Shown here piece after piece: positions 5,214-51,979 of a stretch of DNA of 64,000 nt. The DNA is from Fidelibacterota bacterium. Lineage in GTDB: Bacteria; Fidelibacterota; UBA2242. The stretch covers positions 1,959 through 65,958 of the forward strand of contig JADHWC010000003.1 in assembly GCA_016783665.1 (NCBI GenBank), in the 5' to 3' direction. Under the pieces are notes generated by a model. That model had not been told where the DNA came from. It worked only from the letters and a program-made list of their open reading frames with translations, and made no database searches. The position numbers and the translations under genes were made by a program. The first letter of the stretch is position 1, and each line of letters starts with the position of its first letter.

Positions 5214-5241
5214 ATAAATAAATCTTTTAAATTTAACAGAA

Positions 5242-5372
5242 CATCCCCCTTTTTATTCCCCCTTTACTAAGGGGGATTTTAATTTTCCCCTCTAATAAGA
5301 GGGGTGTCCGGCAGCTGCCGGACGGGGTGTGTTACTCCCTTCACCGAAGGAATGATCTCTTTCATAATCCTC
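5242..5372. repeat. Triple-hairpin repeat copy 1, overlapping the 3' end and stop of the DUF559 gene
   Basis: Three consecutive palindromes: ccccctttactaaggggg, cccctctaataagagggg and ccggcagctgccgg. They recur at 5767-5900 and partially at 5929-5966. Confidence 0.8.
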
Positions 5373-5714
5373 AATCCAATTTCTAATACCTTCTAATACT
5401 TCATCCATATTCTTTTTCACATCAATGTCCGAAAATCTTAAAAACTTAAGTCCAAGGGATTCAAGAAGCTTTCGACGTTTATAATCTACACCCCCTTTAA
5501 ATTCGTGACTCACTCCATCTATCTCAATTATTAAATTTAATTTTGGACAGAAGAAATCGACTATATAATTGTTAATCGGTTTTTGCCTGTGAAAATCATA
5601 GCCTTTCATTTTTTTACATTTTAGATAATTCCATAATAGAACTTCAGACAAGGTGCTATTATTACGGAGCTTTCTGGCAAGTAATTTGAGATGTGGATTG
5701 TAGTAGATTTTCAT
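5292..5714 (-). CDS. DUF559 / endonuclease-domain protein (Vsr-like fold)
   Basis: 140 aa with the typical DUF559 core (LWNYLK...FHRQKPI..YIVDFFCP...IEIDG..H). The last ~25 codons are encoded by the hairpin repeat. Confidence 0.75.
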   Translation of the reverse strand: MKIYYNPHLKLLARKLRNNSTLSEVLLWNYLKCKKMKGYDFHRQKPINNYIVDFFCPKLNLIIEIDGVSHEFKGGVDYKRRKLLESLGLKFLRFSDIDVKKNMDEVLEGIRNWIEDYERDHSFGEGSNTPRPAAAGHPSY

Positions 5715-5766
5715 TTTTGAAACTCGTTATACATTTTTAAAATAACAAGCGGTAAATAGGATATAA

Positions 5767-5966
5767 CATCCCCCTTTTTATTCCCCCTTTAATAAGGGGG
5801 ATTTTAATTTTCCCCTCTAATAAGAGGGGTGTCCGGCAGAGCTGCCGGGCGGGGTGTGTCGCTCTCTTCACCGAAAGAATGATCTCTTTCATAATCTTCG
5901 TTTTAGAAATTAGAATAAATACCAAATCACATCCCCCCTTTTATTCCCCCTTTACTAAGGGGGACT
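5767..5966. repeat. Triple-hairpin repeat copy 2 (5767-5900, including a ~40 bp duplicate of the DUF559 3' coding end) plus partial copy 3 (5929-5966)
   Basis: Near-identical to 5242-5372, ending ...caccgaaagaatgatctctttcataatc; a third truncated copy covers only the first hairpin. Confidence 0.8.
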
Positions 5967-6021
5967 TACAAAGGGTGTTACAATCAATTGTAAAAAATAT
6001 TTTCTCCATCACAAGATGTTA

Positions 6022-8214: not shown

Positions 8215-10089
8215 TTATTTTGTCGCTTCTTCCATTATTTCATTCAAGCGCTGGACGAATTCCGTCGGATTTGTCAAATTGCCATCAATTAACATCGCTG
8301 ATTCATATAGCTGCAGAATTGACTTTCTCAGAAGCGGATCCTTGCTGTCGCCTATATTCAACCGGGACAAATTTTTAATTAAATGATGGACTGGATTTAT
8401 TTCAAGAATCTTTTTCCGGGGTATAACTTCCTGATTCATGATTTTCATCATTCTTTCCATTTGCGGATCCAAGCCATCTTTCCCGACGACCAAAGTCACA
8501 GGTGAATTTACCAGGCGTTTTGAGACTGTCACATCCTCTACTTTATCGCCAAGAGTTTCCTTAAATACCGAAATCAGTGAGTTTGTCATTGTCTCGTTTA
8601 GCGAATCAGCTTCTTCACTGTCTTTATCCTTTTTCTCATCATCCAGCGTGATATCCGCTTTATCGATGGATTTTAAGGGTTTTTTATCATACTCGTTTAT
8701 TGATGGAGTGACAAAAACGTCCACCGGATCAGTCATTAACAATACTTCGATATCATTTTTCCTGAAATATTCAAGATTAGGATTTCTTTCCACAATATCC
8801 CGGTCCTCGCCTGAAAGATAATAAATCTCTCTCTGCTTTTTCTTCATTCGTGTGATATAATCGTCCAGTGATACCAATTCCCCTTTTGGTTTTGCCGTCG
8901 ATTCAAAACGAAGAAGTTTGATAATTTTATCACGGTTTCCAAAGTTACTATTAACACCTGTTTTGAATAGCATACCAAAATTCTTATAGAACTTTTCAAA
9001 TTTGCCGATATCATTTTTTGACCAATCTTCAAGCATATTGATAATTCTGGTGGTTAAAATTGTTTTGATTTTAGCCATAACCGGACTGTGCTGTGTGACT
9101 TCACGAGAGATATTTAATGGTAAATCTTCCGTATCAACAACACCACGAACAAATGTTAAATATTCCGGTAATAGATCTTTAGCATCGTCCTGAATAAAAA
9201 TACGATTTGAATAGAGATGAAGTCCTTTATCTTCAAGATCATAAAAAAGATTCATTGGAGCTTTTGGCGGTACAAACAATAAAGCCTTAAAGTTAACCGC
9301 GCCTTCGAGAGATAGATGCAGATGACCAAGCGGAGCTTCAAAATCATTAGCGACAAACTTATAAAACTCGATCAATTCATCCTCTTTTAATTCATCTTTT
9401 GACCGGCGCCATAAAGCATCAACAGTATTCGCTTTCTCTTTGCCTATTTCAATCGGGAAATCGACAAAGTTAGAATATTTTTTAATAGTCGATTTAACGC
9501 GATAATCTTCACTAAAATCTTTATGTTCATCCTTTAAACGGAAACTGATTGATGTACCCCGTTTCTTACGGTCAATTTCCTCTATTGTAAATGAACCTTG
9601 TCCGTTTGACGTCCAGCGATACCCTTTTGACCCGGGATTAGCGTGACGGGTTTCTATGACTACCTCGTCAGTTACCATAAAAACAGAATAAAATCCAACG
9701 CCAAATTGACCGATTAAATCTCCCTCAGGAACTTTCCCATTTTTCTGTATCTCTTCCAAAAACTTCAACGTACCGGAATTTGCCACCGTACCGATGTTCT
9801 TGATCAGATCTTCTTCGGTCATTCCAATACCCGAATCTTCTATCGAAAATAACTGCTTTTTAGTATCCAAATTTATCGATATTTTCAGATCAGCATCAGG
9901 ATCAGTGATTTCCTGATTCGTTATCTGTAAAAAACGTACTTTATTCAAGGCATCGGAGGCATTGGAGATTAATTCTCTTAGAAATACTTCCGGATGAGTA
10001 TAAAGGGAATGAACAATCAGATGAAGCAGTTGAGTTAATTCTGCTTTAAACTTATAGGTTTTTTTTGATTTAGTCGAATTTTTAGCCAT
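8215..10089 (-). CDS. htpG: Molecular chaperone HtpG (Hsp90)
   Basis: 624 aa with the GHKL ATPase motif LRELISNASDAL near the N-terminus and a typical Hsp90 middle and C-terminal domain. Confidence 0.95.
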   Translation of the reverse strand: MAKNSTKSKKTYKFKAELTQLLHLIVHSLYTHPEVFLRELISNASDALNKVRFLQITNQEITDPDADLKISINLDTKKQLFSIEDSGIGMTEEDLIKNIGTVANSGTLKFLEEIQKNGKVPEGDLIGQFGVGFYSVFMVTDEVVIETRHANPGSKGYRWTSNGQGSFTIEEIDRKKRGTSISFRLKDEHKDFSEDYRVKSTIKKYSNFVDFPIEIGKEKANTVDALWRRSKDELKEDELIEFYKFVANDFEAPLGHLHLSLEGAVNFKALLFVPPKAPMNLFYDLEDKGLHLYSNRIFIQDDAKDLLPEYLTFVRGVVDTEDLPLNISREVTQHSPVMAKIKTILTTRIINMLEDWSKNDIGKFEKFYKNFGMLFKTGVNSNFGNRDKIIKLLRFESTAKPKGELVSLDDYITRMKKKQREIYYLSGEDRDIVERNPNLEYFRKNDIEVLLMTDPVDVFVTPSINEYDKKPLKSIDKADITLDDEKKDKDSEEADSLNETMTNSLISVFKETLGDKVEDVTVSKRLVNSPVTLVVGKDGLDPQMERMMKIMNQEVIPRKKILEINPVHHLIKNLSRLNIGDSKDPLLRKSILQLYESAMLIDGNLTNPTEFVQRLNEIMEEATK

Positions 10090-10221
10090 TGGATAATTCC
10101 TTATATAATTTGCATAATTATTGAAAAGCGCATTGAGATGTTACGAATATCATGCCAAAATTTTTAAACGTCATATTGTCAGATATTATTTCCGGAATAC
10201 CATAAAACCTAACCTGGATAA

Positions 10222-10287
10222 ACCCCCGAAGGGGCAGGCCCGCCTGCTCCCGAACCGCTACGGCGGAGAGGGTGGGCAGGCAGAGCC
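10222..10287. repeat. GC-rich palindromic element E1 (REP-like)
   Basis: A ~65 bp segment of >65% GC in ~35% GC surroundings (cccccgaaggggcaggcccgcctgctcccgaaccgctacggcggagagggtgggcagg). It shares gctcccgaac...gagaggg(t/c)gggcagg with the element inside hsdS (19419-19497, opposite strand). Confidence 0.7.
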
Positions 10288-10340
10288 AAAAAGGAAAAGA
10301 GTTAAAAGTGAAAAATGAACAGGCTGTTCCAGTCCAGGCG

Positions 10341-10490
10341 ATTCTGGATACTGGATTCTGGATACTGGATTCTGGATTCTGGATACTGGATTCTAGATAC
10401 TGGATTCTGGATACTGGGTACTGGATTCTGGATACTGGGTACTGGATTCTGGATACTGGGTACTGGATTCTGGATACTGGGTACTGGATA
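10341..10490. repeat. Tandem heptanucleotide array (~21 x [a/t]ctgg[a/g]t) with a 21-bp higher-order unit actgggtactggattctggat x4
   Basis: Direct reading shows attctggatactggattctggat... ending in four perfect 21-mers, in the divergent region between htpG and the receiver/hydrogenase operon. The 79-aa ORF listed here is its translation. Confidence 0.9.
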
Positions 10491-10798
10491 AGAAAAAAAA
10501 CAAGAATATGATTAGTAAGGGACTAATTGTTCACGAAATACGCTATAAATTGTAAATCTTTTGGAGTTTTATGGCAAATATTGTATGCTCCTTTAGATTT
10601 CATTTATTATATTACGGCGCTTTGATGGTTTATTGAAAACACTATAGTACGTATCAGATATCTAACAGCTAAGCGTATATGATACAGTTGCAATAAATTC
10701 TCTGTAAATAAGCCCCTTTTATCAGGCTATTTTAAATAGTATGACCGGGGATAATCGTACATAAAAAATATTAGATCACATTTTAGGAGGACTGTTTA

Positions 10799-11170
10799 AT
10801 GGCGAAAATATTAATAGTCGATGATGACGAAGACTTTGTATCGGCTGTCAATCTCTTACTGAAAAGCAACGGTTTTGATGTTGCAATTGCAAATTCCCGC
10901 CAGGAAGGAATGGAAAAATTTGATGAAGATAATCCGGACCTGGTCTTATTGGACGTGATGATGGATGAACCGGATGACGGATTTGTAATGGCTCAATCGC
11001 TCAAGAAAAAAGCGAAGGACATCCCGGTTCTGATGTTAACAAATGTCGGACAGGTTACAGGTCTGGATTTTGACAAAGACAGTGAAATGGTTCCCGTCGA
11101 TGATTTTGAGCAAAAACCAATTATGCCAAATATATTACTTGATAAAATAAACCAACTTCTTGGCAAATAA
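10799..11170 (+). CDS. Stand-alone response-regulator receiver domain protein (CheY-like)
   Basis: 123 aa: ILIVDDDEDF...LVLLDVMMD (acidic pocket and phospho-acceptor Asp) with AGGAGG RBS; sits immediately upstream of the hydrogenase genes. Confidence 0.8.
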   Translation: MAKILIVDDDEDFVSAVNLLLKSNGFDVAIANSRQEGMEKFDEDNPDLVLLDVMMDEPDDGFVMAQSLKKKAKDIPVLMLTNVGQVTGLDFDKDSEMVPVDDFEQKPIMPNILLDKINQLLGK

Positions 11171-17888: not shown

Positions 17889-18089
17889 TTTTCCAATTCT
17901 TTTCTAAAGTTTGTCTAATTTAGTAAAGAAACTGCGTGATTCAAGTGATAATACATAATTCGAATAACTCCTTGTTATAGCGATAGATAGATGTATTCAT
18001 ATCCTGCATTTCAATCTTATTTGCTATCAATTCAACACCCTTCTTTACTAAAACTTTACTAATTCTTTACTAAAATCCATTTTCTACCA

Positions 18090-18665
18090 CGTAACCCACG
18101 AATTTATTCGTGGGTGATACAATAATGTCTAAACCAAACCGATTCATCGGTTTATCTCCAGATTATGCAACTTCATGAATTGTTCATATTCCTCTTTGAA
18201 GGTCATTTTACGATGATGCTCTTCTTGCGTTCGGATGTATCGTTCGACTTTTCCCACATCAGATTCACTAACAGAAAACGCTCCATAGCCAACCTGCCAA
18301 CTGAATTTTAATTGTACTAAATCCTCCTGATTAATCCAATGAGACGTTTCCCCTTTGATAGATTTCATTACTTGAGCAATTGAGACCTCTCTGGAAAGTA
18401 AAAATAATTGATGCACATGGTCACTTGTCCCATTGATAATTAGAACCTTACAATCCATTTCCTCCAATTTCTCGTATAAATGGGTATGTACATCTTTACG
18501 GATAGCATTAACAAGCAATGGTCTCCGATCTTTAGTTCCAAAGATGCCGTGTATCCATAATTTTGTTAGTGAGTGACTCATAACTTTCCTTTGTATAAAC
18601 CGTTAAAACGGTTTCCTTTTTGTTGTTGTTCATGCTCCCACGATTGAAATCGTGGGTTTCTAACA
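18090..18665 (-). mobile_element. IS200/IS605-family (possibly RAYT-like) element inserted between hsdR and hsdS
   Basis: A Y1/HuH tnpA gene is flanked on each side by a pair of hairpins in mirror arrangement. Left side: cccacgaatttattcgtggg then aaccgattcatcggtt; right side: aaccgttaaaacggtt then cccacgattgaaatcgtggg. Confidence 0.7.
18144..18581 (-). CDS. tnpA: IS200/IS605-family tyrosine (HuH, Y1) transposase TnpA
   Basis: 145 aa with HuH motif (SDHVHQLF) and a C-terminal catalytic Tyr region (ERYIRTQ); N-terminal WIHGIFGTKDRRPLL resembles IS200 TnpA and RAYT. Confidence 0.8.
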   Translation of the reverse strand: MSHSLTKLWIHGIFGTKDRRPLLVNAIRKDVHTHLYEKLEEMDCKVLIINGTSDHVHQLFLLSREVSIAQVMKSIKGETSHWINQEDLVQLKFSWQVGYGAFSVSESDVGKVERYIRTQEEHHRKMTFKEEYEQFMKLHNLEINR

Positions 18666-18721: not shown

Positions 18722-20158
18722 TCATCTTGATTGTGTCTCTCCTTCAACCAAGACGGTTGAGTTATACCCCCTCACATCAATTTTCCCCGTCACCACTTCG
18801 GAAATAAGTGATTGACGGTATTCTTTTAAAAGTTCAATTCGTTGGGTTTCTTTTTCAATGGTAGTGTCAATCTTTTGGGTTTGTTCATCAAGATATTCAA
18901 CGATTTGGTGTTGTTCAGTATTGGTTGGTTTTGGATAAACCATATTTGAATATTTTTCACCATTCACATTTTCAATAGTTGAAGTGATTGTGTTTAGACG
19001 AATCCAATATAAATAAAAATCAGTTTTCGTTGTGTAAAAGACAAATTTTGAAGAAAAATAATCCCCAAAATTGAATCTTACTAAATAACCACCTGAAGAA
19101 TACATACCATCTTGAAGATGTAAATATGATTTGCCTACAGTATGTCCACTTCTACATAACAACAAATCATATTTATCCAATAGAAACTCTACATCCACAT
19201 CTGATTCAATTAAATATTTTCCATTATCGGGATTCAATTCTCCACAATCATCAAGGTCTGTAATCCTTATAAACCTTACACCATTTTCAGTATATCTGTC
19301 ACTACTAATATTGAGACCATAACGAACTGGTATTAGTGTATCGTATTTAAGTTTTGAAATAGTCCAACCACTCGGAATCTCCCCAATCCACTTAACACCA
19401 CTATCTTTCATCTCCACATTCCTGCCCGCCCTCTCGTCCGTTCGGGAGCCAGCCTGCTCACGGAGTGCTGGCAGGCAGGCGGGGGGGTTCAGCCCTTTGG
19501 TCACACAATGATTGATAAGGGCAGTTCGTTTTTCTTTCAGGAGTTCGATCTTCTTTTCTGTTTTTTCAATCAGTTCGTCAATCTTTTGGGTTTTGTGGTC
19601 AAGGAAGGAGACGATTTGTATTTGTTCTCTTTTTGGAGGAATCAAGAATTGAAAAGTAGAAATCTCTTCTTGACTCAACATTGGGATTGTTGTAATTGAA
19701 CCAATCAAATTAATTTGAGTAAAAATGTGATTTGATTGTAAATAGTACCAAAGAAATATTGGATTTTCTTTTATTTGATTAACCAAAACAAGACTCGGAT
19801 TGATTGTCATTTCACCATAATCTTCATCAATGAATACTACTTTCCCTAAACTTCCCCTTTGACTAATAATCATATCACCTTTTTTCACCATAATCTCGGG
19901 GGACTCATAATATTTATCCCAACTCAAAAAGTCAGGATTTGATAGGTCTATTTTTTGGGATGAGTTGATATGTTTCCCTCCAAGAACTAAACATCCTTCC
20001 CCTTCATCTACAAAATCAGTTTTCTTATATCCTTTGTATCCAATCCTACCCTGTAAATTTACAATATATCCAAGTTTTTTTCTTGCCCACCCACTCGGTA
20101 TCTCTCCAATCCACTCAACTTCACTATCTTTATATGACGGATACGGTCTCATTATCAA
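18722..20158 (-). CDS. hsdS: Type I restriction-modification specificity subunit HsdS (two target-recognition domains)
   Basis: 478 aa with duplicated EVEWIGEIPSGW / GVKWIGEIPSGW TRD starts, a central coiled-coil conserved region, and C-terminal ...LISEVVTGKIDVR. Confidence 0.85.
   Translation of the reverse strand: MIMRPYPSYKDSEVEWIGEIPSGWARKKLGYIVNLQGRIGYKGYKKTDFVDEGEGCLVLGGKHINSSQKIDLSNPDFLSWDKYYESPEIMVKKGDMIISQRGSLGKVVFIDEDYGEMTINPSLVLVNQIKENPIFLWYYLQSNHIFTQINLIGSITTIPMLSQEEISTFQFLIPPKREQIQIVSFLDHKTQKIDELIEKTEKKIELLKEKRTALINHCVTKGLNPPACLPALREQAGSRTDERAGRNVEMKDSGVKWIGEIPSGWTISKLKYDTLIPVRYGLNISSDRYTENGVRFIRITDLDDCGELNPDNGKYLIESDVDVEFLLDKYDLLLCRSGHTVGKSYLHLQDGMYSSGGYLVRFNFGDYFSSKFVFYTTKTDFYLYWIRLNTITSTIENVNGEKYSNMVYPKPTNTEQHQIVEYLDEQTQKIDTTIEKETQRIELLKEYRQSLISEVVTGKIDVRGYNSTVLVEGETQSR
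19419..19497. repeat. GC-rich palindromic element E2 inserted in-frame in the hsdS inter-TRD linker
   Basis: A ~78 bp stretch of ~70% GC inside a ~33% GC gene. It translates to ...PPACLPALREQAGSRTDERAGRNV... exactly between the central conserved helix (TKGLNP) and TRD2 (EMKDSGVKWIGEIPSGW). Its reverse complement is similar to E1 at 10222-10287. Confidence 0.7.
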
Positions 20159-20239: not shown

Positions 20240-21304
20240 CTATTCTTCGCCTGCAAATAGTGTAAATAATGGTAAGTTGACATAATAGTTACTATTTTTG
20301 ATTTTCATTTTTTTTACAAAGCCATCTTCTGATAACTGATTGAGATAACCGGATGCCGTTTTTCTTGACACCCTTAATTCATGTTCAACAAACTCTATTT
20401 TTGTATAAGGATGTTTAAACAAGTTGTTTATCAAATCCTGGCTATAAAATTTATATTGATTTCTTATTCGATGTTTATAATCCATCATCAACCGCTTAAT
20501 CTCAGAAATAATTATGACGGTGTGTTGCGATGTTTCTGCAATGCCATTTAACATCCAGATAATCCATGATTCCCAATCATTCTCCGTGCGAACACCTTGC
20601 AACAATTGATAATAATCCGTTTTGTTCTCAATAATGTATTTGCTGAGATAAAGAACCGGAATATCAAGTAGTTTTTTTTGTAGTAGATACAGAATATTGA
20701 TAATTCGCCCGGTCCTGCCATTACCATCATAAAAAGGATGAATACTTTCAAACTGATAGTGAATGATTGCCATTTTAATCAACGGATCAATATCGTGCAG
20801 TGAATCTTCATTGATATAATTTTCAAGATTGCTCATTAACGCAACAATTTCATTTGCATCCTGTGGCGGTTTGTAGATGGTTTCTCCAGCGCTGTTTTGC
20901 AATACCGTGCCAGGTATTCTTCGAAAACCTTGCTTTATCGGCTCAATTATTTTTTGAATTTCCAAAATATAATTATTTGTCAAAAGATGGTGCTTTTTGA
21001 CCAGTTTAAATCCTTTTTTCAAAGCATTTGCATAATTTTTCACCTCTTTTGCCGCTAGATTATTGAAACTATCGTCCGCATCCGCACGGTAAAGATCATC
21101 TTGAGTAGTTATTATATTTTCAATTGCAGAACTATCTTTTGCTTCTTGTAAAGCAAGTGTATTTATAAGAATTTCTTCATTAGGAATTGTTTTGGATTCT
21201 CCTTTCAACTCCCCCAACGCCCGACTGGCTTTGTTTAAATTTTCATAAATATCCGATGTTTTGACATTTATATCCAGAGGCAACTTTTGCAATGATATAT
21301 TCAT
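20240..21304 (-). CDS. fic: Fic/DOC family protein (adenylyltransferase-type Fic)
   Basis: 354 aa with Fic motif HPFYDGNGRTGR; overlaps the hsdM stop by 4 nt and lies between hsdM and hsdS. Confidence 0.85.
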   Translation of the reverse strand: MNISLQKLPLDINVKTSDIYENLNKASRALGELKGESKTIPNEEILINTLALQEAKDSSAIENIITTQDDLYRADADDSFNNLAAKEVKNYANALKKGFKLVKKHHLLTNNYILEIQKIIEPIKQGFRRIPGTVLQNSAGETIYKPPQDANEIVALMSNLENYINEDSLHDIDPLIKMAIIHYQFESIHPFYDGNGRTGRIINILYLLQKKLLDIPVLYLSKYIIENKTDYYQLLQGVRTENDWESWIIWMLNGIAETSQHTVIIISEIKRLMMDYKHRIRNQYKFYSQDLINNLFKHPYTKIEFVEHELRVSRKTASGYLNQLSEDGFVKKMKIKNSNYYVNLPLFTLFAGEE

Positions 21305-30837: not shown

Positions 30838-31954
30838 TCGGACGGCGAATTTAAGATTTTAATCCATAAAAGCAAACTCATTTTCGAGGACTTTTACTTC
30901 ATATATCGTGCAAATATTGCGTTTATCGTTCCGGGAAGATCTCCCTTGTACCAGAACCATCCCCTTTCTCGTCTCAATGACCCTGCGTTGATACGGAGCT
31001 TTTTTCAGTGTCTCCTACTGGAACGAAGACACGAGTGGTGTAACACAAACACTCTTGTTTGTGAGCAATTATTTTACCGCGACCAATCTGCTGAGTAATA
31101 TCGTTCCGAAGCACCTGCCCGACCTGTCAGGCGGGGAACCCCGGAACGAGAAATGCGAGAATCCTCACTAATCTGGCTACGGGGTTGTACTCCGTAGCCT
31201 TCATACGTTCCGTAGCAAAGCCACGGAACGAGATTCAACGAGACGCGCTCCCAATCTCTGGCTACAGTGCCCCCCCCCGCCTGAAGGTCGGACAGGCTGC
31301 TCTTTAGCCTATTTAACCGCCCGGAGCGATGCGCTCCGCATACTGTCATTCCTACATTATTTTGTACTTTATCATTGCATCTGACATGAATTTGTCCTGT
31401 TATATTTCATCATGGCTGGGAACCTCGAAAAACGTCACCGCACAACTCTCTGGGAAATGCTCAGAGATTTGCCGAATCTGGCAAAAGTGAACGGTTCCAG
31501 TCATTGGCACGTTTTTCCGAACCATCAGAAAAGACGGCTGAGAATAAAGCAAAACACTAATCATCCGGTCATTGTAAATACCCGTGGACCGCCTGTGATC
31601 GAAGCATCCTTCCGAAGGTTCGGAACCTTCGGAAGGTTTAAAGCAACGTAACGAGATGTATTATTTTACTCTGGCTGCGGGATTGTACTCCGCAGCCATT
31701 TTACACTCTTGTTTGTGAGCGGTAATCTGGCTACAGGGTAGCCAGGTAATAACGCAAACCCGTCTTCTATGAAACGAAGTGGAATCAAACGGGTTTCGCG
31801 GATTTATGGGGAAACATTCTGAGTTTATGACGATGTGCTTTAGTTTTGCTTCGGGGGCGCTGAAACCCATACCGAAAGTTTCTTCGGATTACGCGAAAGA
31901 TTCAAGTAATATCGTGAAGTATGTTAGATAACTTTTGCAAAGTTATCCTTAAAC
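30838..31954. repeat. ~1.1 kb non-coding region dense in GC-rich palindromic/REP-like repeats (possible structured ncRNA locus)
   Basis: Repeated units aatctggctac (x4) and the hairpin ggctacggggttgtactccgtagcc (31178; variant at 31671) occur with stems cgttccgt...acggaacg, two copies of acactcttgtttgtgagc, and a 29-nt near-perfect palindrome ccttccgaaggttcggaaccttcggaagg (31598-31626). The only ORFs are short and GC-skewed. Confidence 0.6.
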
Positions 31955-49326: not shown

Positions 49327-51720
49327 TCATTTTCTAAATTTATAGGAAATCGAAATAAACCCATTCCGCGTCGCTCCGGGCCAATAATAGGCATAATAAC
49401 CGCCCCATTCATAGCCATACCCGTATGTTGAATACAATTTATTCAGGATATTATTCACCTTACAATTAACTTCAATATTCTTAAATACATACCGGATGCC
49501 GCCGTCCAGCAGCCAAAAAGCGTCATTGGTTCCGAGGTTTTGTTTGTCGAGATACTGTTTCCCCACATAGCGCATCGCAATGAAAAACGTCAGCTGATCA
49601 ATCGGATTCAATCGCAGACTGCCGTTAAATAATATCGATGGAACATTGGGAATGACCTTATCCTTACAGCTACCGCTCTGAAAAATATGCCGGCTTATGC
49701 TGCTGTTCAGGTTCACTGCCCAGAATGATGACGGCTGATAATTCAGTTCCAGTTCAATTCCCTGGTGCAATGTCGCGTCGGAATGATAATAGATGTACTC
49801 TCCCTCCTGTTCAACATCGATGTTTTTCAACTGCTCGTTTTTATAATTAATCCTATACAGGTTCAGGTCGAACTCGAATTGGCGGCTTCGATAACTGCCG
49901 CCTAATTCATAATCGTTTATCAATTCAGCTGACGCCTTCCGGGGAGTGCTCCATACATCGTCGGCTTCGATGATCTGATCGTCTGCCGGTTCGCGCTGGG
50001 CTTTCCCGTAATTCGCAAAGACGGATAACTCATCGGTAAATGAATATATCGCTCCAAAGCGTGGATTCACGAATCTCCACACCGCATCCAATTGATACCC
50101 GACGGCATGTCCGATCTTCTTCTGATCCATATTCCAGTGAATGTATTGATACTGCAGATCGGCAATCAGTTTCAATTTTTCAAGCGGTTCAAAAGCAAAG
50201 TGAGCGAAACCTGTTGTGATCAATTTTTCACCAATATAGTTATAATACCGATACCAGTCTTCGGAAATTAGAGACGATAAATCAGGATCGGAGAAATCAG
50301 CGATTTCACCGTAGTGATCACCGGTATAGAAACGAATCTCACCGCCGATATCCAGTCGATATTTATTACGAATATATGTCAGTGTCGGAATCATCCCGAA
50401 ATAGTTATTGACGATCCATTTCCTACGAGTAAAGCCCAATTCGCGGCTACTATATAAATCCCACGGGTAATCCGGATAATAATTATCAAGATTATAGGAA
50501 AACAGGAAATCTCTGAAATCGTCCCGGTCATCAGTTCCAATGTCATTGGTAAGATCATAACCGGATGACTTTTCGGTCTCGTAATACCCCTCGCCCATCA
50601 CAAGGTAAGCGACATTACTGAAGTGAAGACGATCGCTGATCCGCCAGAAGCTGTTCAAAGAATAGACCTGTTGTAAAAAGTCATCGATATAAGATTGATA
50701 ACCAGCGCGCCGCTTTTTACGGTCATTGATATCATCAGCAGAAACGCCGTCCCACATCAGATGACTTCGTTCATAGCCTATCAATGCCCTGAATTGATGA
50801 GTGAATTTAACACCGTCGTATTCAATCCCGACAGATCCGGCTTTCTGATCGGTATCATGAAAATCACGATAGCCTTCGGATTTAATCTGTGAAAGCCTTG
50901 CCGATAGTTTTACTCTTTTATTGAAAAGCGCTCCACTAGCGGCTTTTAGATGGATTTTCGACGTATTATACGAACCCGCGCCCACATTCAGTGACAATTC
51001 CGGTTTATCGGATCCAATCGATGTAATCACATTTATCGATCCTCCAAAAGCCGAAGCGCCGTAAAGGCTGTTGCCAATCCCGCGCTGTATCTGAACATCT
51101 TCGGCATCACTGAGAACATCGCCATGATCTACCCAATAGACCTGATGACTTTCATTATCGTTCAATGGCACATTATTCATCATCACGGCGATGCGGCTCT
51201 GATCGAATCCCCTAATCTGGACATAGGAATAACCGGTTCCGTTGCCGCTTTCACTGTAGGAATAAACACCCGGTTCCATAGCAAGTATCATCGGTAAATC
51301 TTCGACAGTGTAGCGGTTTTGAATTTCCTCAGCAGTAAGTTCCGAAAAGGCGACCGGTGTTTTTCCTTTCACGGCTCGTGTGGCAGTCACAAAGACATCT
51401 TTGCCCGTTAATACTTCCGGAACAAGATATATATCGCCGACAGTACTTTTTTTTACTAAAAATGTCGTATCCCTGAACGCAATGTGGGAAACGGTTATTT
51501 TACAGGGCAATATTGTGTAATTCAGCACAAAATCGCCGGACTCATTGGAGTAAGTTCCCTCACCGGTTTCAAGAAATATATTGGCATAATCAATCGGTTT
51601 TCCCGTTGACCGGGATACTATTTTACCGGTTATGAGATTTTCATTGCTGAATCCCACACTTGTGAAAAAAAGCGTAATTAGAATAAAAATGAAAAATGCG
51701 GAGAATGTTTTTTGGGTCAT
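49327..51720 (-). CDS. TonB-dependent outer-membrane receptor with N-terminal carboxypeptidase-regulatory-like domain
   Basis: 797 aa with a signal peptide, a CarboxypepD_reg-like beta-sandwich (GKIVSRSTGKPIDYANIF...SGDFVL), plug domain and a long beta-barrel. Confidence 0.8.
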   Translation of the reverse strand: MTQKTFSAFFIFILITLFFTSVGFSNENLITGKIVSRSTGKPIDYANIFLETGEGTYSNESGDFVLNYTILPCKITVSHIAFRDTTFLVKKSTVGDIYLVPEVLTGKDVFVTATRAVKGKTPVAFSELTAEEIQNRYTVEDLPMILAMEPGVYSYSESGNGTGYSYVQIRGFDQSRIAVMMNNVPLNDNESHQVYWVDHGDVLSDAEDVQIQRGIGNSLYGASAFGGSINVITSIGSDKPELSLNVGAGSYNTSKIHLKAASGALFNKRVKLSARLSQIKSEGYRDFHDTDQKAGSVGIEYDGVKFTHQFRALIGYERSHLMWDGVSADDINDRKKRRAGYQSYIDDFLQQVYSLNSFWRISDRLHFSNVAYLVMGEGYYETEKSSGYDLTNDIGTDDRDDFRDFLFSYNLDNYYPDYPWDLYSSRELGFTRRKWIVNNYFGMIPTLTYIRNKYRLDIGGEIRFYTGDHYGEIADFSDPDLSSLISEDWYRYYNYIGEKLITTGFAHFAFEPLEKLKLIADLQYQYIHWNMDQKKIGHAVGYQLDAVWRFVNPRFGAIYSFTDELSVFANYGKAQREPADDQIIEADDVWSTPRKASAELINDYELGGSYRSRQFEFDLNLYRINYKNEQLKNIDVEQEGEYIYYHSDATLHQGIELELNYQPSSFWAVNLNSSISRHIFQSGSCKDKVIPNVPSILFNGSLRLNPIDQLTFFIAMRYVGKQYLDKQNLGTNDAFWLLDGGIRYVFKNIEVNCKVNNILNKLYSTYGYGYEWGGYYAYYWPGATRNGFISISYKFRK

Positions 51721-51886
51721 GATAAGCTCCCTTCGCTGGTATTATCCAGATCAGGTTCAAAGGGTATTTTCTCAGCCGTTCACGTGTTAGTGAAAAGCAC
51801 CCCCAGAACTTCAGTTTTTAAATATCACAATTACAATTTAATAACTATTTATTACTAAAATCAAATAGTTTTCATAACAATATTAG

Positions 51887-51979
51887 CGGGAACGCCTGGG
51901 AGTCGAACCCAGCTCCCCGATTGTATCGGGGACAGCGATTTTGAAGACCGCGACACCCACCGGGGTTGCATTCATTCCC
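51887..51979 (-). tRNA. selC: Probable selenocysteine tRNA (tRNA-Sec, anticodon UCA)
   Basis: Minus-strand RNA GGGAAUGAAUGCAACCCCGGUGGGUGUCGCGGUCUUCAAAAUCGCUGUCCCCGAUACAAUCGGGGAGCUGGGUUCGACUCCCAGGCGUUCCCG, ~93 nt. It has a long variable arm (CCCCGAU-ACA-AUCGGGG), T-loop UUCGACU, anticodon loop CUUCAAA, discriminator G, and an extended acceptor stem with one G.U pair. Confidence 0.72.

Follow-up and report, generated by a model that had tools for sequence, protein, structure and literature searches.

The htpG spacer and its G+C-rich island

The window analysed here, the whole stretch of 64,000 nucleotides, carries htpG on the minus strand (8215-10089), divergent from a receiver-only response regulator gene (10799-11170); 3' of the latter come genes for a NuoF-like protein and an [FeFe]-hydrogenase. 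We found the G+C-rich palindromic element that had been predicted at 10222-10287 (CCCCGAAGGGGCAGGCCCGCCTGCTCCCGAACCGCTACGGCGGAGAGGGTGGGCAGGCAGAGCC), hereafter called A, some 130 nt upstream of the htpG gene, where a conserved promoter-proximal segment flanks it on either side. Its G+C content of 0.77 is the highest of all 60-nt stretches in the window, compared with 0.39 overall. The spacer contains the following features:

10209..10522, plus strand: hypervariable block (A, spacer, array and tail), absent or replaced in relatives; boundaries approximate, within about 15 nt
10214..10221, plus strand: single CTGGATAA unit immediately on the 5' side of A, with the sequence of the array's final unit
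10216..10290, plus strand: element A as a whole (AACCCCCGAAGGGGCAGGCCCGCCTGCTCCCGAACCGCTACGGCGGAGAGGGTGGGCAGGCAGAGCC), a G+C-rich palindromic island, from the G+C peak and two-strand folding
10223..10234, plus strand: small 5' hairpin of A, CCCC-CGAA-GGGG, ahead of the core, from the fold
10239..10280, plus strand: core of A, a 42-nt family member, CCCGCCTGC...GGGTGGGCAGG, from the termini scan and the alignment to copy B
10291..10339, plus strand: A-rich spacer from A to the array, its first 40 nt with a weak period of 7 (lag-7 identity 0.58)
10340..10490, plus strand: heptamer array CTGGATA / CTGGATT / CTGGGTA, 21.6 units with a 21-nt super-period, from TRF

Folded as RNA, A reached -38.9 kcal/mol on the plus strand (z -2.8 against dinucleotide shuffles) and -41.3 kcal/mol on the minus strand (z -2.6). 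On either strand a small CCCC/GGGG hairpin comes first in the fold, then a long stem within which a CCGC/GCGG hairpin is enclosed. The fold includes the short hairpins named in the original prediction together with a longer stem, and it is more stable than that of the shuffled sequences on both strands. As DNA, the core alone folds at -10.9 kcal/mol. Its inner loop (CTCCCGAAC..GAGAGGG) is common to copy B in hsdS, and its extended termini (GGCCCGCCTGCT...GGGCAGGCAG) are also found on a hairpin in the htpG spacer of one relative, L154. A search of Rfam (gathering thresholds and E <= 10) returned nothing relevant to A, the sole weak match being STnc590 (E = 8.2) elsewhere in the htpG spacer, and Pfam gave no match for the ORFs crossing A. 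A also differs from an intrinsic terminator: there is no terminator-like site in 10000-10900, and the genes flanking A diverge from the spacer.

A had been described as abutting the heptamer array. The two are separated by the 50-nt A-rich spacer, whose lag-7 identity was reached by 21 of 5000 shuffles. A second CTGGATAA unit, however, ends the array at 10484-10491 and forms with the lone unit at 10214-10221 an 8-nt direct repeat around A, spacer and array, which places A inside the footprint of the array rather than beside it. No second CTGGATA array occurs in the window. The length of the array varies among assemblies of one strain, being 42 nt shorter in L001 and interrupted by a scaffold gap in L002, and the contigs of four samples (L003-L006) end inside A (two) or 68 nt from htpG (two). 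Either strains differ at the htpG spacer, or assemblies fail there. The sequence of A is identical in six metagenome contigs of the same strain, two of which end inside it.

Presence and absence of the block in close relatives

The source databases assign the exact HsdS protein and the HtpG relatives (80-82% identity) to Candidatus Marinimicrobia. Gene order around the htpG spacer is kept in the relatives. Across the spacer, about 100 nt on the htpG side and about 290 nt on the response-regulator side hold in the alignment; the centre does not:

L152/L153, HtpG identity 95%: spacer centre empty, spacer of 398 nt
L158, HtpG identity 79%: spacer centre empty
L154, HtpG identity 98%: ATTTGAA heptamers and a G+C cluster containing GGCCCGCCTGCTTGTCGGGCAGGCAG
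L155-157, HtpG identity 82%: other small hairpin families, also present at 31100-31700 of the window

The L154 hairpin GGCCCGCCTGCTTGTCGGGCAGGCAG combines the extended termini of A with a loop of 4 nt, compared with 25 nt in A, and is itself nested inside GTCCGG..CCGGAC. In both L154 and the window, the flanking sequence has been replaced by the block and not merely added to. The relatives at 95% and 79% HtpG identity retain the same genes and flanks without any block. Judged from these alignments, the spacer upstream of htpG has a hot spot at its centre, both dispensable and hypervariable. The mobility implied by the original prediction of a composite mobile or regulatory element is borne out by the absence of the element at 95% HtpG identity and its replacement by a different block at 98%; the composite part did not stand, as described below for the heptamer arrays.

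Two further observations concern this spacer. A 12-mer, GAGACACAAAGA, follows a hairpin in L152 (4880-4907) and opens the variable block of L154, where it adjoins CGCAGAGGCGCAGAG-type 7-nt periodic sequence; its position beside the hairpin or block in both suggests that mini-repeats may travel with short flanking motifs. At 10143-10158 of the window, the minus strand reads TTGGCATGATATTCGT, whose core ATATCATGCCA is invariant in all five aligned relatives and precedes the htpG start by about 55-70 nt. Read on the strand of htpG, this core resembles a sigma-54 -24/-12 element (TGGCAT-N5-TCGT) and is a candidate for one, in which case the hypervariable block would lie where an upstream activator site is expected.

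A family of hairpins with shared termini

The original prediction regarded A as related to an element inside hsdS. This relation was confirmed. A and the hsdS element (copy B) are collinear on opposite strands, with a local alignment score of 34 compared with 16.8 +/- 3.0 for dinucleotide shuffles, and none of 2000 shuffles reached that score. A scan for the family termini, CCCGCCTG...YGGGCAGG, yielded four copies in the window. Three of them have exact termini, whereas 300 block shuffles keeping local composition yielded none. Because A and B defined the termini pattern, C and D are independent finds. Beside A, the copies are:

19421..19483, minus strand: copy B, an in-frame addition of 63 nt (21 codons, PACLPALREQAGSRTDERAGR) to hsdS at the KGLNP / NVEMKDSG junction; exact termini, absent from homologues
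19449..19475, plus strand: 27-nt hairpin (CCAGCCTGC..TGGCAGG) nested in B in opposite orientation, from the A/B sequence comparison
31114..31135, minus strand: copy C, a 22-nt member (CCCGCCTGACAGGTCGGGCAGG) in the loop of a GTTCCG..CGGAAC hairpin (31103-31147); its excision restores the hairpin
31276..31296, plus strand: copy D, a 21-nt member (CCCGCCTGAAGGTCGGACAGG) with one mismatch in the right arm, from the termini scan

The boundaries of these copies are exact. Thirteen HsdS homologues lack precisely the 21 residues of B, and B without its nested 27-nt hairpin is a 36-nt unit collinear with A. Excision of C leaves a 23-nt GTTCCG..CGGAAC hairpin that matches L155 (31/36) and positions 31207-31229 of the window (24/28). 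For C, as for the viral loci L131 and L138 below, the boundaries were set by explicit excision and pairwise alignment, since the gap placement of MAFFT was misleading. D is inverted relative to C, 140 nt away. The density in the window is four copies per 64 kb. A family of four with common termini agrees with the earlier judgement that A is not random sequence.

C and D lie in a second mini-repeat hot spot, at 30840-31950, which extends for more than 1 kb without a convincing gene and is dense in small hairpin families: C and D themselves, CTGGCTRCGGG..CCGYAGCC (two copies), GTTCCG..CGGAAC (two) and ACACTCTTGTTTGTGAGC (two). Two of these families fill the htpG spacer of L155-157.

Exact insertions were also found elsewhere. 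One of the thirteen HsdS homologues, P0002, has a near-identical first half and bears, in frame, a member of 33 nt that is oriented opposite to B and lies five codons beyond the position of B. On a Shewanella baltica IncC plasmid, hsdS carries a 21-nt member (CCTGCCAGTCCGGCAGGCGGG) in frame after LLSFP, and an E. coli plasmid hsdS allele, 92% identical to it, lacks exactly those 21 nt. The BLAST match that led to the Shewanella gene (E = 0.5) is not significant alone; the alignment with the empty site carries the weight. With copies in Marinimicrobia and on the Shewanella plasmid, the family is present in at least two phyla. On the viral contigs L122, L131 and L138, the flanks of the hairpin rejoin in phase with AACTCGY, CATTCACG and GGCAAAG repeats, and the homologous loci L131 and L138 carry both orientations at neighbouring positions. 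Overall, B and at least eight other copies are in frame inside genes, including genes matching DegT, glycosyltransferase 4 (GT4), KdtA, DHH/RecJ-like and UDG domains across the insertion. The flanks of the viral and metagenome matches listed showed no apparent conserved target sequence beside the insertions.

These copies bear on the possibility that A is a functional regulatory or structural DNA or RNA element of the divergent promoter region. Such an element could be a cruciform, a protein-binding site, an insulator or terminator separating htpG from the hydrogenase operon, or, in combination with the length-variable array, a spacer subject to phase variation that determines how far upstream sites lie from the promoters. 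The position of A between the conserved promoter-proximal segments would fit a role of this kind, as would the array-length differences among assemblies of one strain and the different heptamer array with a sister hairpin at the same place in the 98% relative. However, whichever variant is chosen, we consider this reading unlikely: the whole block is missing from relatives with 95% and 79% identical HtpG that have the same genes and flanks, family members also occur within other hairpins and, with the frame kept, within unrelated genes, and neither a terminator-like site nor an Rfam match was found. Close relatives that lack the block, and copies that lie in frame, both speak against a regulatory function that is required, and we infer that A is selfish or neutral at htpG. 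The locus can do without the block, which is not to be taken for a conserved regulator of either htpG or the hydrogenase operon.

Wider distribution of the family

Viral contigs were searched with the pattern CCCGCCTGA N1-14 GTCGGGCAGG, which matched 26 loci, and metagenome contigs with GGCCCGCCTGC N3-33 GGGCAGGCAG, which gave at least 120 matches. As the arms of these matches were fixed by the search patterns, the conservation of their arms is not evidence. Four features of the matches listed do not follow from the patterns: identical forms, a recurring left flank, tandem units, and the in-frame position within the genes named above. Identical 26-nt (..CCGGAC..) and 41-nt (..AACGCTATGCGTAGCATTGC..) forms occurred with unrelated flanks on contigs whose G+C content ranged over 33-68%. 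The extended left flank that recurs, CCTGCCTGCCGGCA, completes a 41-nt hairpin (z -3.6). Part of the matches in G+C-rich contigs are probably due to chance.

Tandem units were present in L047, L249 and L190, head to tail at 10329-10391, about 8960-9045 and about 10190-10300, respectively. Those of L190 share a conserved junction, GGGCAGGCCCGCCTGCC, with 15-nt variable loops between, superficially like a miniature repeat-spacer array. A BLAST search of the tandem units against cultured phages gave no meaningful match.

Among the matches listed, the lengths of distinct members were multiples of three in 16 of 18 cases in the viral set and in 55 of 95 in the metagenome set. The same bias appeared even outside recognisable genes, at 36 of 48 non-ORF sites. 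This bias could stem from passage through coding regions or from ORFs that escaped annotation.

Beyond the seed hits the density was low, with 2 extra members per 198 kb; the Marinimicrobia loci, a biased sample, gave roughly one copy per 20-30 kb. The A/B-specific pattern TCCCGAAC N3-11 GAGAGGGYGGGCAGG had one match in species-representative genomes, in Streptomyces, which we took as chance; accordingly, the source species is not among the representatives, or its copies differ. The A-type pattern had no match on viral contigs. A loose termini pattern on viral contigs, dominated among the matches listed by G+C-rich chance matches, was of use only in bringing out the GA..GTC subtype. A protein search with a composite 84-aa query of in-frame peptides gave no match, and a literature search for the family sequences and encoded peptides found no paper.

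Arms of the family and comparison with REP elements

The arms of the family, CCCG-CCTG and CGGG-CAGG, can pair in either of two registers that lie 4 nt apart and exclude one another, and each of the resulting stems has a 4-nt single-stranded end. Pairing of the full arms places one C.A and one G.T mismatch in the stem on either strand. The basic units of the family are 21-28 nt long (21, 22, 24, 27 and 28 nt), and compound or nested forms, among them A and B, extend to about 63 nt. Short members were no stabler than composition-matched shuffles (z -0.2 to -2.3), and compound members were stabler (z about -3 to -3.6). What the members conserve is the sequence of the ends together with the capacity for hairpin formation, a combination more indicative of protein recognition than of a thermodynamic role.

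REP elements are defined by a conserved unpaired GTAG or CGTC at one end (PMC3733652), and REP, BIME and REPIN elements are mobilised by RAYT (Y1 HUH) transposases (PMC3116915, PMC3733652). They are imperfect palindromes of 20-40 nt in tandem or inverted clusters, non-autonomous and presumably acting as single-stranded hairpins, and the A family is the same in these respects. As a rule, REPs are lineage-specific; they are extragenic, mostly near gene 3' ends, and number tens to hundreds per genome. A could be a classical REP/BIME moved by a RAYT (Y1), possibly by the IS200-like gene at 18144-18581, a reading to which we attach a low probability. In its favour are the size, the imperfect palindrome with a 4-nt unpaired end in either folding register, the tandem and inverted clusters, and the Y1_Tnp gene 140 nt from hsdS. 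On the other hand, all members of the A family end in CCCG... and ...CAGG without the GTAG/CGTC tag, A-family copies do not flank the Y1_Tnp gene of the window, whose flanking hairpins (CCCACGA..TCGTGGG) are of another family, and near-identical forms occur in very different genomes rather than in one lineage. Nor are the copies confined to extragenic sites or gene 3' ends, the placement for which the original prediction had proposed a check as REP/BIME-like behaviour: they lie in a divergent promoter region, inside hairpins and, in many cases, in frame within genes.

The IS200-like Y1 transposase gene, which encodes 145 aa on the minus strand, is located in the interval from hsdS to hsdR. A pair of similar CCCACGA-N6-TCGTGGG hairpins, at 18095-18114 and 18637-18656, flanks the gene, and an 11-nt tandem repeat (18043-18075) follows the gene and its hairpins. 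As the mobiliser of the A family this transposase was not supported, on account of its flanking hairpins and because the 2.2 Mb fetched around copies at 270 other loci contained no Y1 homologue.

Relation to heptamer arrays

The original prediction had asked whether copies are systematically associated with the heptamer array. On contigs of less than 50% G+C, a tandem repeat of period 6-9 lay within 120 nt of 12 of 46 hairpin sites (26%), compared with 35 of 296 controls placed at intergenic positions (12%; p = 0.019). Copies are thus enriched near such arrays, but the association is not systematic: B, C and D have no array, and the heptamer sequence is different at every locus. The hairpin and the heptamer array are not one travelling unit, and their association is statistical only.

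At the homologous viral loci L131 and L138, the hairpin occupies different positions in different orientations. The occupied site has extra local repeat units: CTTTGCC is present twice and CATTCACG three times, each compared with once in the empty allele. Extra units of 7-8 nt occur at L131, L138 and L122, and no duplication is present at B, C or the hsdS copies. The extra units at L131 and L138, the CTGGATAA bracket around A and the weak period of 7 in the A-rich spacer suggest that insertion may be coupled with a 7-8-nt duplication.

The same facts could be turned around. If the hairpins are not self-mobile, they could be by-products of replication slippage, template switching or repair at fragile tandem-repeat sites, or else patches that recombination has spread. 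The sequence they have in common would then reflect a preference of the process, or descent of a few patches through horizontal transfer. The co-location of copies with slippage-prone 7-8-nt arrays, the extra repeat units at occupied sites and the replacement of flanking sequence, instead of simple addition, in L154 and the window are all compatible with such an origin. It leaves unexplained the exact and identical boundaries in unrelated contexts, including genes without nearby repeats, the identical 26-41-nt forms in unrelated flanks (among the matches listed), and the two orientations at neighbouring positions of homologous loci, and we hold it to be improbable in both versions. That A is a chance G+C-rich sequence, or a foreign G+C-rich remnant without relatives, would account for its unusual composition and nothing more, and is refuted by the related copies with shared termini, which leave it next to no probability.

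Proposed nature and movement of the element

We consider it probable that A belongs to a family of non-coding, G+C-rich repeats, ultra-small and shaped as imperfect hairpins, that are inserted as exact units by a function acting in trans. A would be a non-autonomous, SDR/REP-like mini-element, probably selfish, with its mobilising function supplied from elsewhere. Its targets would include the loops of other hairpins, short tandem arrays, intergenic hot spots and protein-coding genes, where an insertion would be tolerated when the frame is kept. In the window, a compound copy would have entered the centre of the spacer between htpG and the divergent hydrogenase operon, within the footprint of a slippage-prone array. 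Insertion may proceed via single-stranded DNA structures such as hairpin tips and slipped repeats, with the register-shifted conserved arms recognised by an enzyme specific for both structure and sequence, and may sometimes be coupled to a 7-8-nt duplication that seeds or extends neighbouring arrays. REP/RAYT and IS200/IS605 systems use imperfect hairpins, adjacent tetranucleotides and single-stranded targets; by analogy with them, the leading candidate for the enzyme would be a transposase of the HUH/Y1 type.

A broader proposal is tentative: a class of transposable units of about 21 nt may exist across bacterial phyla, with arms (CCCG-CCTG ... CGGG-CAGG) read by a widespread enzyme and insertion into single-stranded loops. 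Coupled 7-8-nt duplications could then seed bacterial heptamer arrays, and lengths in multiples of three could turn insertions into peptide loops of housekeeping proteins.

Elements of this size have no room for a gene. Pairs of filled and empty sites in Marinimicrobia, viral contigs and plasmids of culturable Gammaproteobacteria offer a concrete route to the enzyme, and also allow the generation of heptamer arrays by insertion to be tested. For annotators, such hairpins are worth recognising: they cause breaks in assemblies, give rise to spurious ORFs and furnish real proteins with G+C-rich peptide loops.

Comparison with other small repeats

The small dispersed repeats SDR1-8 of heterocystous cyanobacteria were reportedly described by Elhai et al. 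(2008, Genome Res 18:1484). SDR5 inserts precisely within HIP1 (PMC4390886), and in the Nostoc trnL intron side stem-loop insertions occur in a seven-nucleotide repeat region (PMC4476775). SDRs have units of about 21-27 nt that form hairpins or compound hairpins (A family, 21-28 nt), insert exactly and nest in other repeats (as do C in the GTTCCG loop, the 27-nt hairpin in B and the L154 copy), and occur inside tandem heptamer repeats (as do the in-phase copies of L122, L131 and L138). Neither group encodes a protein or has a known mobilising enzyme. By contrast, the A family is hosted not by cyanobacteria but by Marinimicrobia, by a plasmid of Gammaproteobacteria and by many uncultured lineages whose G+C content is 33-68%, near-identical forms of the family occur in very different genomes, and in-frame copies in housekeeping genes are frequent. 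Compared by description, the behaviour of the A family appears to match that of the cyanobacterial SDRs most closely, in size, exact insertion, nesting and heptamer context. To our knowledge, SDRs are the only described analogues of elements this small, and we know of no means by which they move.

The Rickettsia palindromic elements (RPE, reviewed in PMC10969869) are likewise palindromic selfish repeats kept in frame in unrelated genes, to which they add a peptide segment. They are, however, about 100-150 bp long, restricted to Rickettsia and of other sequence; A-family units are 5-7 times smaller.

The G+C clusters of yeast mitochondria are short, palindromic and mobile in an A+T-rich genome, polymorphic among strains and occasionally in frame (var1). 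The A family shares with them short G+C-rich palindromic units in an A+T-rich genome, polymorphism and some in-frame copies. The clusters differ in their organellar eukaryotic setting, their sequence classes and the lack of a link to heptamer arrays.

MITEs are IS-derived elements of 70-300 bp with terminal inverted repeats and a target-site duplication. The arms of the A family amount to inverted repeats shifted by 4 nt. The size is below the MITE range, and no parent IS was seen. A duplication is absent at B, C and the hsdS copies, whereas 7-8-nt extra units are present at L131, L138 and L122.

As for the array, intergenic, length-variable 7-nt tandem repeats, including the cyanobacterial STRR, have been reported to be more frequent than any other long simple repeat in many bacteria. 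The Beggiatoaceae have TAACTGA tandem heptamers (PMC4679880). The CTGGATA array is likewise intergenic, length-variable and of 7 nt, a likeness that concerns the array and not the hairpin, but its unit is unique to the htpG locus within the window, where no motif of a genome-wide type such as TAACTGA was seen.

Other features of the window

A DUF559 (Vsr-like endonuclease) gene at about 5292-5714, minus strand, has a direct repeat of 145 nt on each side (5228-5372 and 5753-5899, 90-93% identical), with a third, partial copy at 5916-5967. Each repeat is built of the G+C-rich hairpins CCCCCTTTAMTAAGGGGG, CCCCTCTAATAAGAGGGG and GTCCGGCAGCTGCCGGAC. L154 has the gene, and L152, L155 and L158 lack it in the interval from dprA to the gene that follows, so that the cassette looks mobile.

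Between hsdM and hsdS lies an ORF (20240-21304) that is putatively Fic-like from the look of its sequence. The type I restriction-modification operon with the 21-nt hairpin on the Shewanella plasmid (L279) has an annotated Fic family gene (1883-2884) in the interval between hsdS and hsdR.

Finally, a TPP riboswitch (51709-51814, minus strand) adjoins a selenocysteine tRNA gene (51888-51979, minus strand).
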